Positions 10,993 to 24,387 of a DNA stretch of 59,174 nt are shown piece after piece. Made by a program: the position numbers and the translations under genes. Location: assembly GCA_964354655.1 (NCBI GenBank), contig CAYHAL010000001.1, forward strand, positions 32,032 through 91,205, read 5' to 3'. Each line of letters starts with the position of its first letter. Positions within the stretch are counted from its first letter, which is position 1. The DNA is from an uncultured Dehalococcoidales bacterium. Lineage in GTDB: Bacteria; Chloroflexota; Dehalococcoidia; Dehalococcoidales; E44-bin46. The notes under the pieces were generated by a model. The model was not told the DNA's origin. It saw nothing but the letters and a program-made list of their open reading frames with translations, and did not search any database.

Positions 10993-11199
10993 GTGGCAGT
11001 AGAAAAGTCAATGGCATCCTCGAGCCTAGCTGAGGTTATTGACAGAATCCTGGACAAGGGCATTGTGATAGATGCCTGGGTTCGCATTAGCCTAGTGGGC
11101 ATTGAGATTTTGGCTGTCGAGGCCAGAATAGTGACTGCTGGTGTGGACACTTTCCTCAAATATGCCGAAGCTGTTGGGCTGACCGCAGCCGCTAGGTAG
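10993..11199 (+). CDS. gvpA: Major gas vesicle structural protein GvpA
   Basis: [54 protein letters not shown] is the canonical GvpA core. AGGAGGTG lies 7-8 nt before GTG 10993; an alternative ATG is at 11011. Confidence 0.92.
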
Positions 11200-11397
11200 A
11201 TTTGTGGTAAGGCCATTTGGTAAGCCGAGGGTCGAGGCGTGTTAGTGGTGACCGCCAGGTTGGTTCCCACTTACCAGTTTGAGCTTGCTTGAAGGGGGAA
11301 AGGGGGTAAGTAACCATGGTCTACACCTCGCTTGCCTCGACCTTGGCTTTAGCCAAAGGGAAGGTAGACCTACTTATTATAAAAAGGGGAATGAAAA

Positions 11398-11919
11398 ATG
11401 GGTTTAAGGCAGGAATTCCATGGGGCTAGTAGAAAGCGGCGAACCGAGATAGATGCCATCCGCTCTGGTGTAGCCAGTATACGCACTGAAGTAGCTGGTA
11501 TGCTTAGGGAGTTAGCTAGGGAAGATGCCAAGCGCAGGTCTGAGATAGATGCCATCCGCTCTGGAGTAGCTACTATGCGTTCCGAGGTGGCCGATATGCT
11601 CGAAGAGCTGGCAAAGCCGTATGCTGAGCGCAGGTCGAAGGTAACCGATTATATGCGCTCCGAGGTGAGTGCTATTTTTGAGGAGATTTTGGGCAAGGCA
11701 CCGGCTGAGAAAAAGGGAGCACCAGTGGTTAGGGAGAAACCAGTTAGTGAACTTCGTGATAGGGTCTTTGCCTACCTAGCTAACCACCCCAATGGGACTA
11801 AATTAACCGAGCTGGAAGAGAAGTTTGGCGTAGCCCGCATTCAGATGGCAAGGGTAGTCCGTGAGTTGATGGATAGTAACAAGGTAGAAAAACGCGAGCA
11901 ATTTTACTTTGCTATCTAG
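11398..11919 (+). CDS. Gas-vesicle-cluster protein with 32-aa tandem repeats and a C-terminal winged-helix-like domain
   Basis: Repeats are RRTEIDAIRSGVASIRTEVAGMLRELAREDAK, RRSEIDAIRSGVATMRSEVADMLEELAKPYAE and a shortened third unit. The C-terminus LRDRVFAYLANHPNGTKLTELEEKFGVARIQMARVVRELMDSNKVEK looks wHTH-like. Confidence 0.7.
   Translation: MGLRQEFHGASRKRRTEIDAIRSGVASIRTEVAGMLRELAREDAKRRSEIDAIRSGVATMRSEVADMLEELAKPYAERRSKVTDYMRSEVSAIFEEILGKAPAEKKGAPVVREKPVSELRDRVFAYLANHPNGTKLTELEEKFGVARIQMARVVRELMDSNKVEKREQFYFAI
11437..11628 (+). repeat. Two 96-nt tandem coding repeats, with a degenerate third unit to about 11691
   Basis: gagatagatgccatccgctctgg occurs at about 11446 and 11542. The period is 96 nt (32 codons). 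Confidence 0.85.
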
Positions 11920-11986
11920 GAGCTTGGACATGGCAGCCGGTATAAATTGCCGCTGTGTAGATTAGCTAAGAGGAGGGAGTAGAAGT

Positions 11987-12913
11987 ATGGTTATGACTAG
12001 GGGCGAGGAAATGTTAACGGTGCTGGAACCCCGTCCGTTATCCAAGTTTGTGGAGACGCAATTCATCAAGGAAATTACTGACCGCGCCATGGCCTATACT
12101 ATGGCTGGGTTCCCGGTTCATTTCAGGGGGGCATCAGGGACAGGGAAGACAACACTGGCTCTGCATGTTGCCAGCAAGATTGGCCGACCAGTAGTAATGA
12201 TACATGGGGATGAAGAATTCAGCACATCAGATTTAGTGGGAGGTGAATACGGCTACCGTTTGAGGAGGGTAGTGGATAACTTTATCCATTCCGTATTGAA
12301 GACTGAAGAGGACATGACAAGGAGGTGGGTGGATAACCGCCTGACAGCCGCCTGCAAGTACGGGTTGACCCTTATCTACGACGAGTTTACCCGTTCTCGC
12401 CCGGAGGCAAATAATGTCCTGCTTTCAGTTCTCCAGGAGAAGATGCTTGACGTGCCTGCCCATCAGGGTGACGGTGACGGCTACCTGAGGGTAGACCCTA
12501 ACTTTACCGCCATCTTCACCAGCAACCCAGAGGAGTATGCCGGTGTCTACCGGAGCCAGGATGCCCTTCGTGACCGAATGGTAACCATAGACCTGGGCCA
12601 CTTTGATGAAGAGACGGAGATAGCCATAACTGGGGCTAAATCAGGGATGCGCCGGGCAGAAGCCGCCAAGATTGTAAGTATTATCCGAGCTTTGCGCGAC
12701 TCTGGCGTGTGTGAGTATGCCCCCACTGTTCGGGGGGCGATAATGATAGCCAAGACCCTTAAAGTACTACATGGCTCAGTCAGTAGCAGAAATAATGCCT
12801 TTAGGAAGTTGTGTCTTGATATCCTGGCATCAGAGACAAGTCGAGTCGGCAGCAATGCTCAAAGCGCCAGGGTAAGAGAGAAATTGAGTGAGATAATTGA
12901 CCAATATTGCTGA
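11987..12913 (+). CDS. gvpN: Gas vesicle AAA+ ATPase GvpN
   Basis: Walker A is FRGASGTGKTTLA and Walker B is TLIYDEFTRS, consistent with the CbbQ/NirQ/NorQ/GvpN family. It sits directly after gvpA as in known gvp clusters. Confidence 0.9.
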   Translation: MVMTRGEEMLTVLEPRPLSKFVETQFIKEITDRAMAYTMAGFPVHFRGASGTGKTTLALHVASKIGRPVVMIHGDEEFSTSDLVGGEYGYRLRRVVDNFIHSVLKTEEDMTRRWVDNRLTAACKYGLTLIYDEFTRSRPEANNVLLSVLQEKMLDVPAHQGDGDGYLRVDPNFTAIFTSNPEEYAGVYRSQDALRDRMVTIDLGHFDEETEIAITGAKSGMRRAEAAKIVSIIRALRDSGVCEYAPTVRGAIMIAKTLKVLHGSVSSRNNAFRKLCLDILASETSRVGSNAQSARVREKLSEIIDQYC

Positions 12914-12959
12914 GCTAGAGATGACATCCCTTAGTATGTCCTGAAAGGAGTGCAAGCCT

Positions 12960-13418
12960 ATGAAAAAGAATGTTACTCTCGCTGATTTAGAAAGGGAGAA
13001 CAAGGAACTCCGTAGACAGTTAGCTGAGCTTGACGAGCTGCCCAACACGAGGAGACTTACCAGGAAGAGCATTAGCGACCTTAAGGGGGTGCAGAATATA
13101 GCTACTAGCCTCAGCGCGGGAGTAAGCTCCATCCCTGGCAGTCGGGAAGACCATCACTACCTTGATTTATATTTCCTGCAAATAGAGCAGGAGAGGCTGG
13201 TCAAAGAAATAGCCTCAATAAAAAGGCGAAGGCTACGGTTAGGAAGGAAGGTTTCCCACCTTGACAGGGAGATAGCTGCCAAAGAGAAAAAAGCCCTTCA
13301 AGCCATGACAATTCTGTCGGCAGGGTCTCTTAAAAAAATCAAGGCAAAAAAACAGGAAACGCCAAAGAGGGACGAAAATAAAGAGAAAGAATGGAATAAA
13401 TTTACCCTGGAGTACTAA
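12960..13418 (+). CDS. Coiled-coil protein of unknown function inside the gvp cluster
   Basis: Heptad-rich charged sequence (LADLERENKELRRQLAELDEL...; IEQERLVKEIASIKRRRLRLGRKVSHLDREIAAKEKK) with a Lys-rich tail. I recognised no family. Confidence 0.6.
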   Translation: MKKNVTLADLERENKELRRQLAELDELPNTRRLTRKSISDLKGVQNIATSLSAGVSSIPGSREDHHYLDLYFLQIEQERLVKEIASIKRRRLRLGRKVSHLDREIAAKEKKALQAMTILSAGSLKKIKAKKQETPKRDENKEKEWNKFTLEY

Positions 13419-13448
13419 GCATCTTACTAAAATGAGGAGACTTGTAGA

Positions 13449-13667
13449 ATGGTAGCCATATCGCCTGATGAAGGGCTAATCTGGAGACAGCAGAAACTGC
13501 CGTCTGAAGAGAGACCGAGGCAGATAAGGATAAATTCTGCCGTGATAGGTGCTATCGCTCGACATTTGATAGCCTGGGAATGGGCAAGAGCCCTGAGGAA
13601 AATCGCCGAGCCGTGGGAATGGCAACAAGAGCTTGAACGGAGGGTTTTTCTGGGGATAAGACGATGA
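13449..13667 (+). CDS. Small Trp/Arg-rich hypothetical protein (72 aa)
   Basis: The ORF overlaps the next gene start by 4 nt (ATGA), which suggests coupling. No recognisable motifs. Confidence 0.4.
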   Translation: MVAISPDEGLIWRQQKLPSEERPRQIRINSAVIGAIARHLIAWEWARALRKIAEPWEWQQELERRVFLGIRR

Positions 13668-14722
13668 GGAAATATATATACGGCGTTATCAAAATAAGCC
13701 AGCCAGTGACTTTTGGTCAGTCCCTTCTGTCCTCAAGCCCTGAGGAGGTATACACCATATCCCATCGTGACCTTGCCTTCGTTATCAGTAACTATGATGG
13801 GAGTGATTTTGTTTTGCTGCCCAAGGAGGATAAACTGCGTTGCTTGATGACCCACCAAGGGATTATTGAGCGAGTGATGAAGGAAGGGTATACCATACTT
13901 CCGGTAAAGTTTGGCACCCTTGTCGAGGGTGAGGATGAAATACGCCGCATTTTAAAGCAAGAGTATACAAGGCTTGTCCAAAACTTAAACCAGATGGCTG
14001 GTCTGGTGGAGATAGAGGTAGCAGCTACCTGGGACTTGAACCAGGTTCTTGAGGAGATTGGCAGCGAGGAGGAGATTAGACAACTGGGGCGCTCCATGGT
14101 GGGTAAGTCTGCCTCAGAAATAATGGAAATCCAGATAAACGCTGGTAAAGTGGTTAAGAAATCTCTAGATAGACGGAGGGAGAACTACCGCTGTCAGACA
14201 ATGCAGTCCCTTGCCGAAGCAGCGCTGGATATACAACCAAACGTATTAGTTGCTGATGAGATGGTTATGAATATCGCCCTCCTTATTTCAAGGGAGAGGC
14301 AGAGGGAGTTTGATAGCCGGGTGAGGCAAGTAAATGAGGCCTTTAATGACCAGATTAATTTCCGTATTATCGGTCCTCTACCGCCTTACAGTTTCAGTAC
14401 GGTGGAGATAAAGCGTCCCGACCCGGTGAAGATTGAACAAGCGAGGCAATTGTTTGGGCTCGGCACTGAAGTTTCACATAAGGAGCTCAAGGAGGCTTAC
14501 CGTCGCCTGGTAGCTAAGAGCCACCCCGATGTGCACCTGGATGGTAGCGATGAGCAGTTCACCAAGGTGCGGGAAGCATTTGCTTTACTGCGTGATTATT
14601 GTCACGGGCAGAGTGTGGGTGTTGAGCAAAATACAAATGGGCGATGCTATTCGCTTAAGCCCAAGGATGTAAGCCAGGTTTTTCTGGTTGAGATAAAACG
14701 CCCAGCCCTTCCAACTGGCTAA
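13664..14722 (+). CDS. GvpF/L-family gas vesicle protein fused to a C-terminal J-domain (DnaJ-type, HPD motif)
   Basis: The N-terminus YIYGVIK...HRDLAFVISNY...ILPVKFGTL...GPLPPYSF matches the GvpF/L pattern. Residues ~257-312 (ARQLFGLGTEVSHKELKEAYRRLVAKSHPDVHLDGSDEQFTKVREAFALLRD) match the J-domain pattern, with HPD at nt 14522-14530. Confidence 0.85.
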   Translation: MRKYIYGVIKISQPVTFGQSLLSSSPEEVYTISHRDLAFVISNYDGSDFVLLPKEDKLRCLMTHQGIIERVMKEGYTILPVKFGTLVEGEDEIRRILKQEYTRLVQNLNQMAGLVEIEVAATWDLNQVLEEIGSEEEIRQLGRSMVGKSASEIMEIQINAGKVVKKSLDRRRENYRCQTMQSLAEAALDIQPNVLVADEMVMNIALLISRERQREFDSRVRQVNEAFNDQINFRIIGPLPPYSFSTVEIKRPDPVKIEQARQLFGLGTEVSHKELKEAYRRLVAKSHPDVHLDGSDEQFTKVREAFALLRDYCHGQSVGVEQNTNGRCYSLKPKDVSQVFLVEIKRPALPTG

Positions 14723-15532
14723 ATGCTTGGGGTTAGTATGGCGGGAGAAGAGACTAGGGAAGCAAAGTACCTGTACTGCATAATAAAGTGCAGCCAGGAG
14801 GGCAACTTTAACGGTGTACCGGCTGTTGGTGGTCACTGCAGCCAGATTCACACCGTTGTCTTCAAGGATTTAGCCTGCGTGGTTAGCGGCTCGCCGAACA
14901 CGGAGTATGATAGTACCCGGGTAAACATGATGGCTCACGAGACGGTGATCGAGCGGGTAATGAGGGAATTCACCGTTCTACCCATAAGATTCGGCACCGT
15001 TACCACAAAAGGCTCGGGGTCGCCGGTTGAGGATATCCGCCATAAGCTCCTTGAGCGTCATTATGATGAATTTCTAAGCCTGCATGAGGACATGAGTGGG
15101 GGGGTTGAGCTAGGGCTTAAGGTATTATGGCGTGATGAGAAGGCAATCTATCAAGAGGTAGTTGCTGAAAACAGGGAATTGCGTAGGTTGAGAGATTCTA
15201 TTCAGGGTCGTTCTGCTGAGGCGACACACTTTGACCGGGTGCGATTGGGAGAAATGGTTAAAAAGGCGCTTGACCAAAAACGGGATAAGGAGGCGAGGAT
15301 GCTCCTGACTCGCTTTCACCCTATAGCCGACCGAATACGAGAGAACAGAATTATTATCGACCGAATGGTTCTGAACGCTGCCCTGCTGGTAAATAAAGAC
15401 CGGGAGAGGGAGTGTGATGAAATAGTGGAGAGACTGGATGAAGAGCTGGGAGAGAGGATGGTGTTCAAGTACACCGGGCCTAACCCTCCATTTAACTTTT
15501 GTCAGATTACGGTCAAATGGGAGAAGGAATGA
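14723..15532 (+). CDS. GvpF/L-family gas vesicle protein
   Basis: AKYLYCIIK...FKDLACVVSG...VLPIRFGTV...GPNPPFNF. An alternative start is ATG 14738. Confidence 0.85.
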   Translation: MLGVSMAGEETREAKYLYCIIKCSQEGNFNGVPAVGGHCSQIHTVVFKDLACVVSGSPNTEYDSTRVNMMAHETVIERVMREFTVLPIRFGTVTTKGSGSPVEDIRHKLLERHYDEFLSLHEDMSGGVELGLKVLWRDEKAIYQEVVAENRELRRLRDSIQGRSAEATHFDRVRLGEMVKKALDQKRDKEARMLLTRFHPIADRIRENRIIIDRMVLNAALLVNKDRERECDEIVERLDEELGERMVFKYTGPNPPFNFCQITVKWEKE

Positions 15533-15813
15533 AAGAAGGTAGGAAAATTCAGCAAGAAGAGGGAGGCGATCTTCTTACTAATATACTGGCCTTTCCTATT
15601 CTTGGCGCCCCAATAATGGTTCACTGGGTCGCCCAAAAGCTCGTCGAGGCAGCGGAGCAAGAGGAGCTGGACGAAGGTAAGCTCCAAGGTAAGTTACTGG
15701 AGCTTCAGATGCAATATGAGCTGGGAGAAATTGATGACGAAGAGTATGCGAGACAGGAAACAGCTATACTGGAAAGGCTCAACGCTATTCGTAAAACTAA
15801 GGAAGAGGAATAG
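15529..15813 (+). CDS. gvpG: Gas vesicle protein GvpG
   Basis: LLTNILAFPILGAPIMVHWVAQKLVEAAEQEELDE...LQMQYELGEIDDEEYARQETAILERLNAIR is typical GvpG. ATG 15529 overlaps the upstream stop (ATGA). The ORF-track start at 15499 is also possible. Confidence 0.8.
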   Translation: MKEGRKIQQEEGGDLLTNILAFPILGAPIMVHWVAQKLVEAAEQEELDEGKLQGKLLELQMQYELGEIDDEEYARQETAILERLNAIRKTKEEE

Positions 15814-15827
15814 TAAAAGGACGTAAT

Positions 15828-16136
15828 ATGGTGCCGACAGGGGATAAAATTACTACCAAAGGGGGGGCAAAGATGACTACCGGAATAACAAGTCTGGCTG
15901 AGCGAGCCAAGCAGCAATTGGCTAAGGTCACTGGCTTTAGCCCAGTAGCGGCAGTGGGGGGATTTAAAGACGAGGAGGGCTGGCATATCTCGGTGGATAT
16001 GCTAGAAATGGCCAGATTGCCCGAAGCAACCGATATCATTGGCACTTATGAGGTTTTGCTCGACCAGGGTGGCAACATGGTGAAATTTGAGAAAAAGAGG
16101 GCACGTCTCCGCGGTGAGCCGTATGAGGAAGGATAG
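15828..16136 (+). CDS. gvpO: Gas vesicle protein GvpO-like
   Basis: AKQQLAKVTGFSPVAAVGGFKDEEGWHISVDMLEMARLPEATDIIGTYEVLLDQGGNMVKFEKKRARLRGEPY matches the GvpO pattern (domain, then E.GW...V...E..R.P...D....YEV.LD..G). An alternative ATG is at 15873. Confidence 0.72.
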   Translation: MVPTGDKITTKGGAKMTTGITSLAERAKQQLAKVTGFSPVAAVGGFKDEEGWHISVDMLEMARLPEATDIIGTYEVLLDQGGNMVKFEKKRARLRGEPYEEG

Positions 16137-16202
16137 CTAAGTGCTACCATATTAGCTTCGTCACCATAGGAGTAGAAGCGCAACTAAAGCAAAAGAGGAT
16201 TG

Positions 16203-16562
16203 ATGAATATGGCATTACAAGCGCAAAAGGACACCGCTGGTACCTTATTTGATGTGATTGACAGGATACTGGACAAGGGGCTGGTTATTAATGCCGATAT
16301 CATGGTCTCGGTTTCCGGCGTTGAGCTACTAGGCATAAAAATAAGAGCTGCCCTGGCATCATTTGAAACCGCCGCCAGATACGGGCTGGAATTCCCTTCA
16401 GGAACTAATTTCCAAACCCCGGCCTGGCAGGAGGCAGTAGCCACTAAGGAAGAATGCCCTCAATGTGGTAAAAGGGTGCCAGCTAAGGAACTCTTGTCGG
16501 CAGGATGCCCCTGGTGTGGCTGGATAAGCGTTAAGGCAAAAGTAGCTCTGCCGCCAGCCTAA
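16203..16562 (+). CDS. GvpJ/GvpA-family protein with a C-terminal CxxC...CxxC zinc ribbon
   Basis: [48 protein letters not shown] is the GvpA/J core. The tail is CPQCGKRVPAKELLSAGCPWCGW. Confidence 0.8.
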   Translation: MNMALQAQKDTAGTLFDVIDRILDKGLVINADIMVSVSGVELLGIKIRAALASFETAARYGLEFPSGTNFQTPAWQEAVATKEECPQCGKRVPAKELLSAGCPWCGWISVKAKVALPPA

Positions 16563-16589
16563 AGGAAAGGCAAATGGCTAGCCGAAGTT

Positions 16590-16970
16590 GTGGGGATAAA
16601 GAAGTACGCAAGAGGAAAAGAAGCTATGGCAATTGTTGATATTGATGAAAAGAACCTGAAGCACGGTGTGCTGGGGCTGGTTATAGCCTTGGTGGAAATA
16701 ATCAAAGATACCCTCAAGCTTCAGGCAATGAAGCGTATGGAGGGAGGTAGCCTGACCGGGGAAGAGATAGAGCGGTTGGGAGAAGCGCTTATGGACCTAG
16801 ATATAGCCATTGACGAGATAAAGCAAGAGCAGGGGATTACCGAGTCGGTAAAATCGGTGAGGGATGGGCTGGATAATCTGGTAGATGGTGTCATTGACCA
16901 GTTCCTAAACCCTGAGAGGTGGCGGCAGGTAGCCGAATCAAAGGAGGAATCTAGCTGTGCAGCAAGATGA
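16590..16970 (+). CDS. gvpK: Gas vesicle protein GvpK
   Basis: LKHGVLGLVIALVEIIKDTLKLQAMKRMEGGSLTGEEIERLGEALMDLDIAIDEIK is the GvpK signature. GTG 16590 is taken from the ORF track; an alternative ATG is at 16626. Confidence 0.8.
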   Translation: MGIKKYARGKEAMAIVDIDEKNLKHGVLGLVIALVEIIKDTLKLQAMKRMEGGSLTGEEIERLGEALMDLDIAIDEIKQEQGITESVKSVRDGLDNLVDGVIDQFLNPERWRQVAESKEESSCAAR

Positions 16971-17760
16971 CAAGACTGAAGCCCGGAGAGAAGGGCAGGG
17001 GAGGTATCTTTACTGCATTGCCGGTAGTGGTGAGAGGGTAAGCCTGGGAGCTATCGGGATTGATGGTCATAATGTCTATACCGTTCCCTACCGGGATATA
17101 TGCGCCGTAGTACATAAGTGTCCTGCTGAGCCGTATCAGTCAACCGATAGAGAGTTGGTAAACTGTTGGCTACTGGCACACCAGAAGGTAGTGGACGAAG
17201 CTTGGCAAAGGTGGGGCACAGTGCTTCCTGTGGGATTTGATACCATAGTCATGGACAAAGATGGGGTTGGGGCGGAGGATAATGTCAGAGACTGGCTTCA
17301 AAAGGACTACGATAGCCTCAAGGACAAAATAGAGAAACTGAGGGGCAAGGCAGAGTATGGTGTGCAAATCTTTTGGTCACCCCAGGTTATTGCCCAGAAT
17401 CTAACCAAGACAAGCCCTGAAATCAGGCAGCTTGGGGAGGCAATAAAATCCCAGCCAAGGGGCATTGCCTACCTCAATAAGCAGAAGTTAGAGGGTGCAC
17501 TAAAGAAGGAATTAAAATCCAAAGCCGACCAGTGCTTTAGGGATTTCTATGAGCGTATTCGGAGACACGTTGACAATATCGTTGTGGGAAAAACGAAGCT
17601 GGGTGTTCAGGATGCTCAGATGATAATGAATCTCTCCTGCTTACTCCCCAAAGATAAGGCTGCCGAACTGGGGGAGGAACTGGGGAAGATTAATGCCATC
17701 GATGGGTTCTCGGTTCGCTTTACCGGACCCTGGCCGCCATATAGTTTTGTTGGCACCTGA
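16957..17760 (+). CDS. GvpF/L-family gas vesicle protein (third paralog)
   Basis: GRYLYCIAGS...YRDICAVVHK...VLPVGFDTI...GPWPPYSF. The GTG start overlaps gvpK by 14 nt. Confidence 0.85.
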   Translation: MQQDDKTEARREGQGRYLYCIAGSGERVSLGAIGIDGHNVYTVPYRDICAVVHKCPAEPYQSTDRELVNCWLLAHQKVVDEAWQRWGTVLPVGFDTIVMDKDGVGAEDNVRDWLQKDYDSLKDKIEKLRGKAEYGVQIFWSPQVIAQNLTKTSPEIRQLGEAIKSQPRGIAYLNKQKLEGALKKELKSKADQCFRDFYERIRRHVDNIVVGKTKLGVQDAQMIMNLSCLLPKDKAAELGEELGKINAIDGFSVRFTGPWPPYSFVGT

Positions 17761-17776
17761 TAGTAGAAGGTTATAA

Positions 17777-18073
17777 ATGGAACCAACCCGGGATACACAT
17801 TATACATTGGTAGACTTATTGGACAGGGTGCTTGATAAAGGTGTGGTGCTCTATGCCGATATTATCGTCTCAGTTGCTGGCATACCTCTAGTCGGTGTCA
17901 ACCTGCGGGCAGCGCTGGCTGGCATGGAGACCATGCTAAGCTACGGAGTAATGCAAGAGTGGGACCAGAAAATTCGTGCCGTGAAAGGGCTCGAGAAAGC
18001 GGGACTAGTTGCCTATACCAGTGCTACTAACCTGAGCGGGGAGAGGACATATGCCAAAGGCAGTTGGCATTGA
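17777..18073 (+). CDS. Small GvpA/J/M/S-family gas vesicle protein
   Basis: TLVDLLDRVLDKGVVLYADIIVSVAGIPLVGVNLRAALAGMETMLSYG. The 3' end overlaps the Hsp70 start by 23 nt. Confidence 0.8.
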   Translation: MEPTRDTHYTLVDLLDRVLDKGVVLYADIIVSVAGIPLVGVNLRAALAGMETMLSYGVMQEWDQKIRAVKGLEKAGLVAYTSATNLSGERTYAKGSWH

Positions 18074-19883
18074 CCTAGGGACTACTTTCTCACTGGTAGC
18101 CTACCTTGAGTGTGGCCGACCAGTGGTAATTCCCAATAGAGAGGGCAGCTGGCTAACACCCTCGGTGGTGGCATTTCTCAAAAACGGGAAGCGGCTGGTG
18201 GGGCAACTTGCCCGGCAGCAGGCTGTTGCCAACCCGGAGGGTACTATCTTCTCTATAAAGAGACATATGGGGCATCAGACTTACCTTGACCTTGGTGGTT
18301 TACCCAATGATAAGCAGCTTATCCAGCAGATTAAGCGGCACATGGGCTCTGATTACCGGATAAGGATTGACCACAATGAATATACCCCTGAGGAAATCTC
18401 GGCTATGATTCTTAAAAAGCTTAAGACGGATGCCGAAGAATATCTTGATGACAAGATAGAGCAGGCAGTTATCAGTGTGCCTGCCTATTTCAATGTCAGC
18501 CAACGGCAAGCCACTATAGATGCGGCTACGATTGCTGGCATCAAGGTCATGAGAATAATTGACGAGCCAACAGCCGCCGCCCTCGCCTATGGTTTGGAAA
18601 TGGAGGACGTCCACACCATCCTGGTCTGGGACTTAGGCGGCGGCACCTTTGATGTCTCTATCCTTGAGCTTGGCGATGGAATATTTGAGGTCAAGGCGGT
18701 CAACGGCAATACCTGGTTGGGTGGGGACGATTATGACCAGCGTATCGTAGATTATCTGACTGAAGAGTTTCAAGAGCAATATGGGATTGACCTCCGGAAA
18801 GATAGGGCAGTTTGTCGCCGACTGAAGGAAGTGGCTGAAAAAGCTAAGATTGAACTGACGGATAGCGAGGCTACTCTTATAGAGGTACCCTTTATCAATG
18901 CTGGCGAAGGTAGCCCCAAGCACTGGGAGATAACCCTGACCAGGGCAAAATTTGAAGAGCTAACCGAGGATTTGCGGCAGAAGATGATTGCCCCCACTAC
19001 GAAGGCGCTGGCTGATGCCGGACTCAGACCAGAAGATATAGACCGCCTTATCTTGGTCGGCGGCGCCACAAGGATGCCGGCGGTTAGAAAGCTGAGTGTG
19101 AAAATCGTAGGCAAAGAGCCCTATAAGGATATCCAGCCTGACGAAGCAGTGGCTTTGGGAGCAGCCATCCAGGCTGGCATTTTAATGGGGCAAATACAAA
19201 AGAAGGTGCTAATAGATGTTACCCCACTGTCTCTGGGTATTGAGACCCAGGGCGGTATATTTACCAAGATTATTGAGCGGAATACCCCTATCCCAACCTC
19301 CAAGAGTCAGATTTTTACCAACACCTCGGATAATCAGGCCTCCATGGATATTCATGTATTGCAGGGTGAACGGGATATGGCTGTAGATAACATTACCCTA
19401 GATAGGTTTGATTTAACTGGTATATCCTCAGCGCCCCGTGGGGAAGCCAGGGTTGAGGTGACCTTTGATATTGATGCTAATGGCATTCTTCATGTGTCGG
19501 CTAGCGACCTTTATGGCGATAGCTGCCAGGAGGTGAGGGTTAGCCCTCGTTTCTATGGGCTGCCTCAAGAGGAGATAGCCCGCATGGTTGAAGACGCAGC
19601 TAGATTCTCCGAGGATGACCGTAAACGGCGGCAGGAAGTGGAAATTGGCATCAAAGCCGATAATGTGGTGCGGGCTGCCCGGCAGGGTATTACTGAAGCT
19701 GATGTAACTGCGAATCTGAAGTTGATGCAAGAGGTGGAGAAGGCAATATTAGAGGTGCAGCAGGCTGTAGCCGACGGAGACAGTGCTGAGATCAAGTCAA
19801 GAACCGAAGCCCTGGAAAAGGAGATTAAGGCATTATACCAGCAAAGAGAGCCAAAACTAGAGGCAGAGCATGTAACCTCTTAG
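18051..19883 (+). CDS. Hsp70/DnaK-family chaperone encoded in the gvp cluster
   Basis: [39 protein letters not shown] and a substrate-binding domain ([13 protein letters not shown]...VLQGER...[13 protein letters not shown]). GGGGAGAGGA SD. No grpE or full-length dnaJ lies next to it. Confidence 0.9.
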
Positions 19884-19961
19884 ACGGTTGTCCTTCACCC
19901 CTATGCTTTGAGCTAACTGAGCGGCTTATTGTTTCTACTTATTTAAAACTCCCTATCCCTC

Positions 19962-19998
19962 TTGACAAGCTTTTTCCAATGTGTTAACATGTTAACAT
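19962..19998 (+). promoter_or_regulatory. Promoter TTGACA-N17-TAACAT overlapped by tandem TGTTAACA palindromes, 8 nt upstream of ATG 19999
   Basis: TTGACA at 19962-19967 and TAACAT at 19985-19990. TGTTAACA occurs at 19982-19989 and again at 19990-19997. No SD is present. Confidence 0.55.
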
Positions 19999-20433
19999 AT
20001 GGGGGTAATTGGGACAAGGGTATCACCAGTTCTGGAGCAATATATCCAAGACTACTGCAGTGGTTTAGGGAAAACCACTTCTCAGTGGCTCAGGGAACTT
20101 ATCGAAAAGGAAATCTCGGGTAAGACGCCAAACCCAGCGCTTGGGGATGCCATCAATGGGCTTAGCAATTTGGCTTCTGACAATGCCAAATTTATGATTG
20201 GCATACTGGCGGTGTCCTTGGGCATATATAACACCCTTATCCGGGGCGAGATTTCAAGTCACCCTGAGAGGGCAAAGCAACTAGAACAGGCACACAGTGA
20301 ATTCGTAGGCAGGCTGCTCAAAAACCTACCGCTAAAGGAGCAGCTTACCGTCGAAATGGGAATAAGAATATCGGATTTGGCAACCGAAATAGAAAGGATT
20401 AAGTCGGAAAAGCAAATACAGCAGGAGGTGTAA
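19999..20433 (+). CDS. Putative ribbon-helix-helix (CopG/Arc-like) regulator with a hydrophobic segment and coiled-coil tail
   Basis: GTRVSPVLEQYIQDYCSGLGKTTSQWLRELIEKEI fits a beta-alpha-alpha RHH pattern. The hydrophobic stretch is FMIGILAVSLGIYNTLI. It is the first gene behind the palindrome-bearing promoter. Confidence 0.6.
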   Translation: MGVIGTRVSPVLEQYIQDYCSGLGKTTSQWLRELIEKEISGKTPNPALGDAINGLSNLASDNAKFMIGILAVSLGIYNTLIRGEISSHPERAKQLEQAHSEFVGRLLKNLPLKEQLTVEMGIRISDLATEIERIKSEKQIQQEV

Positions 20434-20434
20434 G

Positions 20435-20971
20435 ATGGCTGAAGGGAAGAAAAAGGCAAAGGTAGAGTTTGATTTTGGGCTGGGGGGACTGTTTGAGGGG
20501 ATGGGTAAGCTCTTCGACCTAGTCTCCAAGATGACCGAGGAGGGAAAGGAAGAGTATACCCGTACCGGGGAAATTAAAGGTCTAGGTGATAAGGCTAAGG
20601 GAATCTACGGCTTTAGCATCAAGATGGGCTTAGGCGGTCAGCCAACGGTAGAGCATTTCGGTAACATCAAGAAGACAGCGAGGGGCTCAGTGGAGGTAGC
20701 CGAGGTCAGAGAGCCCATAGTTGATGTCTTCGACGAGGGAGGCTATCTATTAATTATTGCCGAAGTCCCTGGCGTCGAGGAGGAAAACATCGACCTTGAA
20801 ATAAGGGGGGATATTCTCAGCCTGAAGGCTGAGGGTAAAGATAGGAAGTACAGTAAAGAGGTTCTCCTGCCATCAGAGGTTGAGGCTGAAAGTATGAAGA
20901 CCCAGTATAAAAGCGGAGTCTTGGAGATAAAACTTGCCAAGAAGATATCACCGTCGGGTAAAGGCAGTTAG
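20435..20971 (+). CDS. Hsp20/alpha-crystallin family small heat-shock protein
   Basis: [77 protein letters not shown] is an ACD domain. GGAGGTG SD. Confidence 0.85.
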
Positions 20972-20975
20972 AAAT

Positions 20976-23123
20976 ATGCCAGAAATGAAGACAAAAGACG
21001 CCTTGATACTTAAGGTAGCCGAAGCATTAGCCAAAGACGTTGGTCGGGGGATAGCCAGGCTTGACCCCAAAGACATGGCAAGACTGGGGGTTGAGGTGGG
21101 GGATATCATTCAGGTCATGGGTAAGAGACCTACCCCAGCCAAGGTTATGCCGGCGTTTATGGAGGACAGAGGCAAGGATATTATCCAGATAGATGGCATT
21201 ACTCGGGAGAATGCTCAGATAGGTCTTGATGAAAAGGGGCAAGTTCAGAAAGCTGAGTACAAGACGGCTAGCGTAGTGGTTCTTGCCCCCTTAACTACAC
21301 GAGGGACATTAAAGGAAAGGGATACTGGTTATATCGGGAAGCTGCTCGAGGGACTAGCCGTTAGTGCCGGGGACAAGGTAAGGGCTACCCTCTTTGGCAC
21401 TCGTTACCAGGAATTCTCTGTGGTTGATACTAGCCCCAAGGGAATAACTGTCATCCATTCTACCACTACCATAAAGATAGCCGGAGAAGGGGCACGGGTA
21501 AAGGAAGGGGTTGGAATTACCTATGAGGATATTGGTGGGCTGCATCGGGAGACCCAGAAAATAAGGGAGATGATTGAACTACCGTTGAAGTACCCTGAGG
21601 TATTTGAGAGATTGGGGATAGATGCCCCCAAAGGGGTATTACTTCATGGACCACCAGGCTGTGGCAAGACCTTGATAGCCAGGGCGGTAGCCAATGAGAC
21701 CTCAGCCCATTTTATACATATAAGTGGCCCCGAGGTTATCCATAAGTTCTACGGGGAGAGTGAAGCTCACCTGCGAGCCCTTTTTGAGGATGCCAGAACA
21801 AATGCCCCATCGATTGTATTTGTGGATGAGATAGATGCTATCGCTTCTAAACGGGAGGAGATCCGGGGTGACCAGCAGGTAGAGCGAAGGGTGGTAGCTC
21901 AACTTCTGGCTTTGATGGATGGCTTGAAATCGAGGGGGGAGGTAGTGGTCATCGGAGCGACCAACATACCTAATGTGCTCGACCCAGCCTTGAGACGGCC
22001 GGGGCGCTTTGATAGAGAGATAGCCATTAGTATTCCTGATAAGAACGCAAGGCTGGAGATACTTCATATTCATATCAGGGGAATGCCTCTGGCTGCTGAT
22101 GTAGACCTGGAAAGGATTGCTGGAATTACTCACGGGTTTGTTGGGGCAGACCTGGAGGCTCTAGCCAGAGAAGCCGCCATGATAACCCTGAGGAAGATAA
22201 TGCCTAAGATTGAATTCGAAGCTGATAATATCCCCTATGAGTTGCTTCTGGAGCTGGAAGTAACTATGGATGACTTCCTGAATGCATTAAAGGAGGTAGA
22301 GCCCTCAGCCATCAGGGAGGTCTTCATTGAGATTCCTGATGTTCGTTGGGATGATGTCGGGGGACTAGACGAGGTAAAACGGGTGCTCAAGGAAAGCATT
22401 GAATGGCCGCTAAAATACCCGGAGCTTTTTGACCACATGAGAACCAATCCCCCCAAAGGCATCCTACTTTATGGTCCTCCTGGTAGCGGGAAGACATTCC
22501 TAGCTAAGGCAGTAGCCAGTGAGAGCGAGATCAATTTCATTTCGGTCAAGGGTCCAGAGCTACTGTCTAAGTGGGTTGGAGAATCAGAGAGGGGCATAAG
22601 GGAGGTATTTAGAAAAGCTAAACAGGCTAGCCCTTGCATTGTCTTTTTTGATGAAATAGATGCTATAGCCCCAATTCGGGGGGCGAGTAGCGATTCTCAT
22701 GTTACTGAACGGGTAATCAGCCAATTTCTGACCGAGTTGGATGGAATGGAAGAGCTCAAAGGTGTGATTGTGCTGGCAGCTACTAACCGGCTGGATATGG
22801 TAGACCCAGCCTTGCTTCGACCTGGCAGGTTTGACCTTCGGCTGGAATTGCCCACCCCCGATGCTAAAGCCCGCCTGGAAATATTCAATATACATACCAG
22901 AGGAAAACCACTAGCTGCTGACGTGGACCTCAAGGCTCTGGCTGATACCACTGATGGCTTGGTTGGGGCTGACATAGAGGCTATCTGCAGAAGGGCTTCC
23001 ATGCTGGCTATACGAGAGTTTCTGGGTAAGCATAGAACCTTCAAGTCGGAAACTAAAAAGGTAGACCTTTCCCAAGCTAAAGTCAGTAATAAGCACTTTG
23101 AGGAGGTAATCAGGGAGTTGTGA
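20976..23123 (+). CDS. Cdc48/VCP-like double-ring AAA+ ATPase (N domain + D1 + D2)
   Basis: The Cdc48-N-like region is [38 protein letters not shown]. Two Walker A motifs are present, GPPGCGKT and GPPGSGKT. Two Walker B motifs are present, IVFVDEID and [11 protein letters not shown] 20976 follows the hsp20 stop by 4 nt. Confidence 0.9.
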
Positions 23124-23824
23124 AAGAAATGAGAAGATTGATTTATATCCCTATCATTCATACTGATTCTGACATGGGCAGTCTGGCTTCGGCACTTGAG
23201 CTGGGCACGACTGCAGTCTGTGGGGAGAAACGCTGGGAAAGGCATAAGGCAACCGCCTCTAGATTCTGGCAGATGGTATTGGACTTTTTTGAAACATTGG
23301 ATGCCAATGGTCTTAAGGTATACCAGGATGGTTTTGTTTCAGATGGTGTCTCGAGCCGAAAGATGGTTCGAGAGGCGGCGAGGAGAGGGAGTAAGAACTA
23401 TGAAATCATCCTTGGTCTGCTTAGCCGGGGCGCTGAGATAGTATCTACAGAGGATAAGGCGCTGCTTCAGGAGGAATATGGATACATTAGCCGGATTATT
23501 GATTCTGAGACCCTCTCCCAGAGAGCGCTTGCCTACAAGGAATATAATTTGCGGAAGAATCAATTAATGATAGAAAGAGATAGCTTTATAGCTAGAAGGA
23601 TAAATGAGACCCTGGCGGATGGAGAGGCGGGGGCTCTATTTATGGGAGCCTACCATGATATTGTTCCTCACTTGGCTAGGGACATCGCGGTAAGGCAGCT
23701 CAAAGAGCGAGAGAAGGTAAAGGCCTACTTTGATGAGTTAATGTATGGTAGAGACGAAAGGAACTTCGAACAGCTGACAAGGTACATTAACTCAGCAGTT
23801 GGGGCGCTAGTGATTATAAACTAG
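23120..23824 (+). CDS. Conserved hypothetical protein, last gene of the hsp20-cdc48 operon
   Basis: The GTG start overlaps the cdc48 stop (GTGA); an alternative ATG is at 23129. The motif LFMGAYH is faintly reminiscent of the TraB/GumN/ChaN-like GxxH motif. No firm family assignment. Confidence 0.6.
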
Positions 23825-24071: not shown

Positions 24072-24100
24072 TTGACATTTGCCATTTGGCAAATTACAAT
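24072..24100 (+). promoter_or_regulatory. Promoter TTGACA-N17-TACAAT with palindromic spacer, 8 nt upstream of ATG 24109
   Basis: TTGACA at 24072-24077, spacer palindrome TTTGCCA-TT-TGGCAAA, and TACAAT at 24095-24100. Confidence 0.5.
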
Positions 24101-24108
24101 GTTGTCGT

Positions 24109-24387
24109 ATGATTCGAAGCATACCACCAAGTAGAAGAGCAAATAGCAGGGCTTATAAAATAAATGCCTATAGGGTAAATAGGTATGTGCCTTATTATAA
24201 CCGCATGCGTAGCAGTACCCTGGAAAGCTTGCTTGCCGAGGCAGAAAGGCTAGAGTCAGAACAGATTGAAGTGGTAAAGCTTCTGCCTTTTGATGAGGAA
24301 TTACAGAGGCTGGACAAATTACAGCGGGTGGTTATGCAACTCAAGGCACAGATAGTACTCAGGGCAAATAGTCACTGCTTCTGCTGA
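24109..24387 (+). CDS. Small basic hypothetical protein (92 aa), possibly leaderless
   Basis: The in-frame ATG is 8 nt after the -10 box. The N-terminus is Arg/Tyr-rich and the C-terminus is coiled-coil-like. No recognisable family. Confidence 0.4.
   Translation: MIRSIPPSRRANSRAYKINAYRVNRYVPYYNRMRSSTLESLLAEAERLESEQIEVVKLLPFDEELQRLDKLQRVVMQLKAQIVLRANSHCFC

Follow-up and report, generated by a model that had tools for sequence, protein, structure and literature searches.

A candidate autoregulated Hsp20-Cdc48 operon associated with gas-vesicle genes in an uncultured Dehalococcoidales bacterium

Introduction

In Pyrococcus furiosus, the repressor Phr controls its own gene, hsp20 and an aaa+ ATPase gene through a palindromic site in the promoter. 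HspR and HrcA likewise repress chaperone operons by way of an inverted repeat at the promoter (HAIR and CIRCE, respectively), with feedback through the chaperones. Here we describe an operon of four genes encoding an Hsp20, a Cdc48-type ATPase and two proteins termed p144 and p234. It occupies positions 19962-23824 of a 59,174-nucleotide (nt) stretch of contig CAYHAL010000001.1 from an uncultured Dehalococcoidales bacterium, hereafter the window, and lies downstream of a cluster of gas-vesicle (gvp) genes. The source genome comprises 1.375 Mb and is 95% complete; its closest named relatives are Dehalococcoidales metagenome-assembled genomes (MAGs) from sediment, wetland and groundwater metagenomes. 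On balance, we favor the interpretation that this region is the autoregulated proteostasis arm of a gas-vesicle island.

It is an open question how the extremely hydrophobic, amyloid-like GvpA shell stays soluble, is inserted and is repaired. In current assembly models and reviews, GvpN is the only named ATPase (PMC9501494). GvpH, a haloarchaeal protein resembling small heat-shock proteins (sHsps), keeps the hydrophobic GvpM soluble, preventing its aggregation, and stabilizes the vesicles (PMC6107691). Hsp20 genes and an ArsA homologue have been noted in the gvp clusters of Bacteroidota, Chlorobi and Geobacter (Castillo and Saier 2010, PMC2963123); the same study makes no mention of a Cdc48-type ATPase, p234 or a regulator (PMC2963123). 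Hsp20, Cdc48 and p234, together with a dedicated Hsp70 and a J-domain, are concrete candidates for the missing GvpA machinery in about 15 phyla.

Association with gas-vesicle genes

The best 80 of 547 relatives of Cdc48 (60-90% identity) were fetched, and synteny was analyzed in 93 loci with a long Cdc48 match from about 15 phyla. Genes for gas vesicles are present in the fetched flank of 70 of the 93 loci. Hsp20 is encoded within 1.6 kb of Cdc48 in 67/93 and p234 within 3 kb in 56/93. The 23 loci without gvp genes are mostly short contigs, and 17 of them still carry Hsp20 or p234 beside Cdc48. A search seeded with p234 recovered 38 loci from Chloroflexota, Nitrospirota, Planctomycetota, Bacteroidota, Verrucomicrobiota, Acetothermia, Desantisbacteria and others, with p234 at the edge of a gvp cluster in every locus with enough flanking sequence. 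Gene order varies among phyla, and the trio of Hsp20, Cdc48 and p234 remains together throughout. For example, the order is GvpN-Hsp20-Cdc48-GvpF in Nitrospirota and many Chloroflexota, and Hsp20-GvpL-p234-Cdc48 in Myxococcota, Acidobacteriota and Desulfobacterota.

The same association is seen in genome content. Among 301 Dehalococcoidia genomes, with Cdc48 counted when above the TIGR01243 cut-off, 21 encode both Cdc48 and GvpA, six Cdc48 only, seven GvpA only and 267 neither (odds ratio 133, Fisher p = 2.8e-21, uncorrected for phylogeny). The positive genomes are spread over many families. Of the 21 genomes with both Cdc48 and GvpA, 18 gave strong p234 matches; the 13 genomes with just one of the two gave none. 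Within the 20 nearest relatives, p144 is encoded in a single genome (G303), which is also the only one to encode GvpA. Because of the synteny, the co-occurrence and the restriction of both p144 and GvpA to this one relative, the island that includes the operon is gained and lost as a unit. Residence in gvp clusters across distant lineages and co-occurrence in genomes, by which we operationally recognize a gas-vesicle accessory gene, were both observed, and the module is very probably dedicated to gas vesicles.

A preliminary description of the window, made from the sequence alone, had proposed that the module is tied to the adjacent gvp genes rather than being a generic stress operon. The linkage on which this proposal depends was looked for in related genomes and was found at each level covered: in synteny across about 15 phyla, in co-occurrence within the class and in the nearest relatives. 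Two MAGs labelled archaeal (L094 and L107) also encode close homologues of the gvp-linked Cdc48, at 61-62% identity, and in L107 the genes gvpN, gvpO, gvpJ and p234 lie nearby, a hint that the entire module may have been transferred between domains.

It could be argued that the operon is instead a generic archaeal-type heat-shock operon, with Hsp20 and Cdc48 combined as in the Phr regulon, and that it sits beside gvp genes only through a shared horizontally transferred island. Several features fit such an operon: its Hsp20 scores as an 'archaeal Hsp20', TIGR01243 is exceeded among the control genomes only in archaea, its products are the sole sHsp (the only PF00011 match) and the sole Cdc48 of a 1.4-Mb genome, and the unit has its own promoter and regulator, with an operator that is at no gvp promoter. 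However, hitch-hiking does not predict a gvp linkage that survives many rearrangements in about 15 phyla, and strong p234 matches are tied to genomes with both Cdc48 and GvpA. In addition, close relatives without gvp genes are also without the module and genomes of the same order are without Cdc48, so this is not a housekeeping system of the lineage. We regard the heat-shock explanation as very unlikely.

Promoter, putative operator and candidate regulator

The operon is preceded by a sigma-70-type promoter, in which TTGACA (19962-19967) and TAACAT (19985-19990) are separated by a 17-nt spacer. The promoter was read in this form in the preliminary description and was found again by a consensus scan (10/12 matches, with TG). 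Two copies of the 8-bp palindrome TGTTAACA, at 19982-19989 and 19990-19997, abut to give a 16-mer that is its own reverse complement and that spans the -10 box and the expected start site. The ATG of p144 is at 19999, 8 nt after the -10. Direct reading confirmed the earlier account of both the tandem palindromes and the position of this ATG.

The 16-mer is confined to this position. It occurs once in the window with up to three mismatches allowed (0.19 expected), and the 1.375-Mb genome contains no further copy at up to two; the genome-wide scan located it at no gvp promoter. A further scan covered 129 loci (1.79 Mb), mostly gvp clusters without p144. The 16-mer, again with up to two mismatches, is present in exactly seven of them, the same seven in which p144 is encoded together with upstream DNA, and is absent from the other 122. 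It is located 20-35 nt upstream of the start codon in each of the seven. In six loci compared in detail, whose p144 proteins range down to 64% identity, TTGACAA and TGTGTTAACATGTT(A/T)ACA are conserved base for base, with flanking intergenic DNA that is unalignable. Likewise, the palindrome is invariant in strain-level contigs from three other metagenomes, in which the surrounding bases vary. With a single copy of the site in the genome, binding by a global factor is improbable. We dropped the idea that the palindrome is a restriction-site artefact, as GTTAAC is only mildly under-represented (267 observed vs 357 expected).

No Shine-Dalgarno sequence precedes the p144 ATG in the window, and the geometry of the site fits a leaderless mRNA. 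RNA-seq runs containing the stretch were sought and none was retrieved. An ATG directly after the palindrome is found only in the window's species; five related loci have a leader of 10-20 nt with GGAG. Assembly error was rejected as the origin of the missing leader because no indel is seen at this place in independent contigs, which come from three other metagenomes. The predicted leaderless arrangement is specific to the window's species, and the leaderless and leadered versions of the same promoter offer a natural comparison.

The first gene of the operon has no Pfam or NCBIfam match. Its product has 91 homologues (57-97% identity, all of about 144 amino acids), which are confined to a narrow Dehalococcoidales-like group and whose gene slot is constant, directly upstream of Hsp20-Cdc48-p234. 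When the gaps upstream of Hsp20 were searched with phmmer in 50 other loci, no divergent homologues were detected beyond close Dehalococcoidales relatives. As judged from these searches, p144 represents a new family of narrow distribution, restricted to Dehalococcoidales-like bacteria. The N-terminus of p144 resembles a ribbon-helix-helix (RHH) domain: hhalign placed residues 3-43 in register with seven RHH_1 domains drawn from related genomes over 41 columns, which span the entire domain (P = 2.8e-4, probability 41%). In the AlphaFold2 monomer, residues 1-9 are unstructured and are followed by helices at 10-22 and 27-39, as would be expected for an RHH protein that forms its strand only in the dimer. 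The turn between the two helices, Gly-Lys-Thr-x-Ser (G24, K25, T26, S28), is invariant. The remaining residues, about 100, are modelled as long helices, one of which is hydrophobic and borderline for a membrane span (Kyte-Doolittle mean 1.63 over 19 residues). The preliminary description had recorded both an RHH-like N-terminus and a hydrophobic stretch; the first aligns in register with RHH domains but is recognized by no curated model, and the second is present but only borderline as a membrane helix. When profiles of p144 and p234 were compared with PDB sequences, only chance-level matches appeared (lambda CI, E ~1; Stu2, E = 0.12).

RHH autorepressors typically use tandem or palindromic operators over the -10. 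Because the operator is invariant, co-occurs strictly with p144 and is unique in the genome, the 16-mer and p144 are likely to be a cognate local regulator-operator pair, whose binding would occlude the -10 and the start site and result in autorepression. These properties of the operator, together with the RHH-aligned N-terminus, argue for the autoregulation put forward in the preliminary description, although Pfam calls no RHH domain; p144 is probably the autorepressor of its own operon and the putative binder of the operator. The pair would constitute a compact and apparently orthogonal repressor-operator unit. A rather unlikely alternative is that p144 is not a DNA-binding regulator, that another factor or none acts on the palindrome, and that p144 serves as an adaptor or as a membrane- or vesicle-associated component of the module. 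Such a role would agree with the missing match to curated RHH models, with the long helices that make up about 100 of its 144 residues (including the hydrophobic one), and with its translational coupling to Hsp20 across a 1-nt gap. It is opposed by the strict co-occurrence of site and gene, by the uniqueness of the site in the genome and by the register of the N-terminus with RHH domains.

Proteins of the conserved core

The second gene encodes an sHsp, as the preliminary description had stated. It exceeds the cut-offs of both PF00011 (32.9 bits vs 20.8, E 7e-8) and the 'archaeal Hsp20' model NF041800 (160.5 bits vs 140), and does not reach the threshold of GvpH (PF05455; 17.1 bits vs 22, E = 0.006). 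In relatives, an extra and divergent Hsp20 gene is found between gvpJ and gvpK (L039:4057-4515). The corresponding position in the window (16562-16590) is just a 27-nt gap, which leaves the operon Hsp20 as the last sHsp in the genome.

The third gene was described earlier as a two-ring Cdc48/VCP-type unfoldase, and this identification is supported. The protein scores 981.4 bits against TIGR01243, for which the cut-off is 802.65, and contains a double-psi-barrel N domain, composed of CDC48_N (PF02359, 1e-24) and CDC48_2 (PF02933, 7e-10), and two PF00004 modules. The control genomes in which this model is exceeded are four archaea. Both rings have Walker A (GPPGCGKT in D1, GPPGSGKT in D2) and Walker B motifs (VFVDEID and VFFDEID), and both have aromatic residues in the pore loops (KFYGES and KWVGES); the FY of the D1 loop is present in 90/92 homologues. 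An aromatic pair at this position of VAT goes with autonomous unfoldase activity, and p97 is not known to have aromatic residues there. We take KFYGES to represent the VAT-like rather than the p97-like state. The C-termini of the homologues are not conserved; the window protein ends in VIREL, and among the top 40 homologue C-termini shown none has a penultimate Tyr. Given the absence of an Hb-Y-X motif, and with it of a proteasome-docking tail, docking to a proteasome is not expected.

The fourth protein, p234, was listed in the preliminary description as 234 amino acids of no known family. It indeed has no Pfam or NCBIfam match, but it most likely starts at ATG 23129 (231 amino acids), with GTG 23120 as the alternative, because all homologues begin MRxLIYVPIIH. 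The family is large, with 1376 cluster representatives at the 50% identity level (E <= 1e-3). AlphaFold2 predicts a five-stranded alpha/beta protein with a predicted local distance difference test score (pLDDT) of 94.1. Invariant residues cluster at the strand ends, namely H11, D15, Y65-Q66-D67, S88/N90, T107-E108, E116, R150-D151 and G173-x-x-H176, and this set appears enzyme-like. A Foldseek search of the model against the PDB identified no solved relative (best E = 0.07, TM-score 0.18). PF01963 (TraB_PrgY_gumN) matched 15/35 members below threshold, at best with 22 bits vs 26.8 and through the C-terminal motif only. We did not adopt p234 as a member of TraB/PrgY/GumN (Tiki), hhalign against Escherichia coli YbaP being negative (probability 0.45%). 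Canonical TraB proteins, sought for a comparison profile, were found in none of 81 Dehalococcoidia genomes.

Relatives of p234 are also encoded near other chaperones. A distant paralogue in the same genome (C9:4142-4765; 207 amino acids, 25% identity, Tyr replacing His11) is encoded 15 nt after a DnaJ-type J-protein gene (C9:3465-4765 for the pair), an arrangement present in 5/10 Dehalococcoidia genomes checked. Some gvp clusters of the Flavobacteria type have p234 immediately after Hsp70. These two placements suggest that the p234 superfamily keeps company with Hsp70/J-protein chaperone systems. In another Dehalococcoidia genome, the p234 homologue beside Cdc48 is in two pieces with internal stops (G149:C19:25900-26572) and seems to be a pseudogene; this genome retains both Cdc48 and GvpA.

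A different reading of the whole module is as a turnover machine instead of an aid to assembly. Cdc48 would extract GvpA from collapsed or surplus vesicles, the shells of which are nearly insoluble otherwise, p234 would degrade or process the chains, and a separate repressor-controlled promoter would turn the module on only when vesicles need removal or recycling. Cdc48/p97 enzymes are known to pull subunits out of stable assemblies. Consistent with turnover, the module forms a transcription unit of its own downstream of the structural genes and has a dedicated operator, and p234 combines an invariant His, Asp, Glu and Arg set with a weak C-terminal motif of the TraB/PrgY/GumN type, a family that includes peptidases. 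In most other phyla, however, Hsp20-Cdc48 is part of the core assembly operon, with gvpN on one side and gvpF on the other, and this placement implies co-expression with assembly. Furthermore, the protease assignment of p234 is below threshold, with nothing from Foldseek or hhalign. On this evidence we consider turnover unlikely.

Operon organization and neighboring genes

The coordinates of the operon and of the adjoining cluster are collected in Table 1. The four genes, p144, Hsp20, Cdc48 and p234, are tightly packed, as had been noticed previously. The TAA of p144 is separated by 1 nt from the Hsp20 ATG (20435), just upstream of which is a GGAGG. The TAG of Hsp20 is followed by AAAT (4 nt) and the Cdc48 ATG (20976), a start that corrects the TTG at 20934 given in the preliminary description. 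The TGA of Cdc48 has a 4-nt overlap with GTG 23120 or, with the p234 start at ATG 23129, leaves a 5-nt gap.

Table 1. Positions in the window of the operon, its control elements and the upstream gas-vesicle cluster.
Feature	Position	Strand	Basis
Upstream gvp cluster and hsp70; proposed clients and partner chaperones of the module	11017..19883	+	Pfam matches
Sigma-70-type promoter TTGACA-N17-TAACAT, extended -10 TG (19982-19983)	19962..19990	+	Sequence reading and consensus scan
Putative operator, two abutting 8-bp palindromes (TGTTAACA)	19982..19997	.	Unique site; only in p144-encoding loci
p144, RHH-like N-terminus (residues ~3-43), helical C-terminal part of ~100 amino acids, hydrophobic helix 63-81	19999..20433	+	Homologues, hhalign, AlphaFold2
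Small heat-shock protein of archaeal Hsp20 type (holdase)	20435..20971	+	PF00011, NF041800
Cdc48/VAT-type double-ring AAA+ unfoldase, N domain, D1 and D2	20976..23123	+	TIGR01243, Pfam domains
p234, conserved alpha/beta protein, Cdc48 partner	23129..23824	+	Alignment, AlphaFold2, co-occurrence

The upstream cluster contains gvpA, a gene in the GvpC position, gvpN, a gvpF fused to a J domain, gvpF, gvpG, gvpO, gvpJ, gvpK, gvpL and a gvpA-like gene, and has its own hsp70 at the 3' end. A second Hsp70, with 53% identity to that of the cluster, is encoded on contig C24 of the same genome and probably serves as the housekeeping DnaK. A gap of 78 nt separates the stop codon of the cluster hsp70 from the start of the promoter and operon region.

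Downstream of p234, a second strong promoter-like site, TTGACA-17-TACAAT (11/12 matches), precedes an open reading frame of 102 amino acids (window 24072-24387), the ATG of which (24109) is again 8 nt downstream of the -10. This frame has no family match, and only the closest relatives (L001, L002 and L039) share it at this place after p234. The gvp clusters of relatives contain further genes. One has a tubulin-family gene (PF00091, 387 amino acids) between gvpK and gvpL (L120:1736-2899). A two-domain ArsA/Get3-like ATPase is encoded within the clusters of L119 (L119:3944-5944) and L120 (L120:1-447). In L119 its gene lies between those for Hsp70 and p144; in L120 it is upstream of an hsp20 and gvpK. 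This ATPase gene was either lost from the window cluster or never there.

Proposed role of the operon

Beyond the gene content, the conservation of promoter and operator, the synteny and the co-occurrence described above, the following model involves inference on three points: whether p144 binds DNA, which proteins the chaperones serve and what p234 does. The conserved core would consist of Hsp20, Cdc48 and p234, the trio that accompanies gvp clusters in many phyla. The sHsp would keep the very hydrophobic shell proteins of the GvpA/J/M type soluble, and the VAT-like Cdc48 hexamer would thread and unfold misassembled or aggregated shell subunits. The p234 protein, made beside Cdc48 and probably by coupled translation, could assist Cdc48 as a cofactor or hydrolyze the chains once they are released. 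The Hsp70 of the cluster and the J domain fused to GvpF probably act on the same clients. We give this holdase-unfoldase mechanism on shell proteins an even chance of being correct. In the Dehalococcoidales-like lineage, the trio appears to have been relocated to the island's end, where it forms a transcription unit of its own, and to have gained a lineage-specific regulator, p144. Most likely, p144 contacts the two abutting TGTTAACA palindromes through its RHH-like N-terminus, and the resulting dimer of dimers over the -10 and the start site would repress the operon.

Some observations weigh against an autoregulated arm dedicated to gas vesicles. Pfam RHH_1 (PF01402) gave one weak match in the p144 family (1/27 members, E = 0.18) and none to the window protein, neither this nor related curated RHH profiles recognize p144, and the confidence of the p144 model is low (pLDDT 60). 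A terminator-like hairpin was not found in 19884-19961, between the hsp70 stop and the operon promoter, and for this reason read-through from the gvp operon could possibly add to transcription of the module. The pairing of Cdc48 and GvpA is frequent and not obligatory, given the six genomes with Cdc48 and without GvpA and the seven with the reverse, and phylogeny was not corrected for in the co-occurrence statistic. As the genome's only members of their families, Hsp20 and Cdc48 may also serve in general stress. Finally, our literature search returned no paper linking a Cdc48-type ATPase to gas vesicles or gvp clusters, and no experiment that makes this link.

A more elaborate, and quite improbable, version of the autoregulated proteostasis arm is that the operon mediates an unfolded-protein response specific to gas vesicles. 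Through its hydrophobic C-terminal helices, p144 would be a client of Hsp20 and Cdc48 or a sensor of unassembled GvpA. Accumulating shell protein would occupy the chaperones and thereby change how much functional p144 is available for repression. The availability of p144 would in turn set the level of Cdc48, Hsp20 and p234, which, with Hsp70 and the GvpF J domain, would extract shell subunits and re-deliver them. If this were true, the archaeal-type Cdc48 enzymes that occur sporadically in bacteria would be unfoldases dedicated to an organelle.

The proposed role as a proteostasis arm provides bacterial Cdc48 enzymes with a testable client. It is also of practical interest, as proteotoxic stress limits how well gas vesicles can be expressed heterologously as ultrasound reporters (PMC12848028), and co-expression of the native chaperone module could be tried against it. 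The lineage-specific candidate regulator and its operator, the predicted leaderless variant, the three-way rule relating p234 to Cdc48 and GvpA, and the pairing of a p234 paralogue with a J-protein are contributed by the present locus.

Comparison with known systems

Individual parts of the module resemble described proteins. The window Hsp20 is, like GvpH, an sHsp encoded with gas-vesicle genes, but it falls below the cut-off of the GvpH model and within the archaeal Hsp20 equivalog. It is also paired with Cdc48, whereas haloarchaeal gvp clusters are without Cdc48. Likewise, the ATPase shares with Thermoplasma acidophilum VAT and archaeal Cdc48 the order N domain-D1-D2 and the aromatic pair in the D1 pore loop. 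Its clade differs from VAT in the absence of the Hb-Y-X motif, in the bacterial host, in the gvp-linked gene and in the partner p234. The latter has features of TraB/PrgY/GumN (Tiki, PF01963) proteins, including a His after strand 1 (PIIH), an R-D motif and a G-x-x-H after strand 4, but remains below the 26.8-bit cut-off, with an hhalign probability of 0.45% to YbaP and no solved relative by Foldseek. As for the gvp clusters with ArsA and Hsp20, the relatives L119 and L120 carry ArsA and the window does not.

The candidate regulation is comparable to that of known chaperone operons. As in HspR/HAIR and HrcA/CIRCE, a putative repressor is encoded within a chaperone operon that has an inverted repeat at its promoter, an analogy that does not extend to sequence: HspR is MerR-type, HrcA has its own fold, and neither is related to p144. 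The Phr regulon is similar in that an archaeal-type Hsp20 (NF041800) and a Cdc48-type ATPase (TIGR01243) are placed under a candidate dedicated autorepressor. In contrast to Phr, which is a winged-helix protein acting at an archaeal promoter, the window regulator is an RHH-like candidate at a bacterial sigma-70 promoter. The window unit further differs in possessing a fourth gene, p234, and in being genomically tied to gvp genes.

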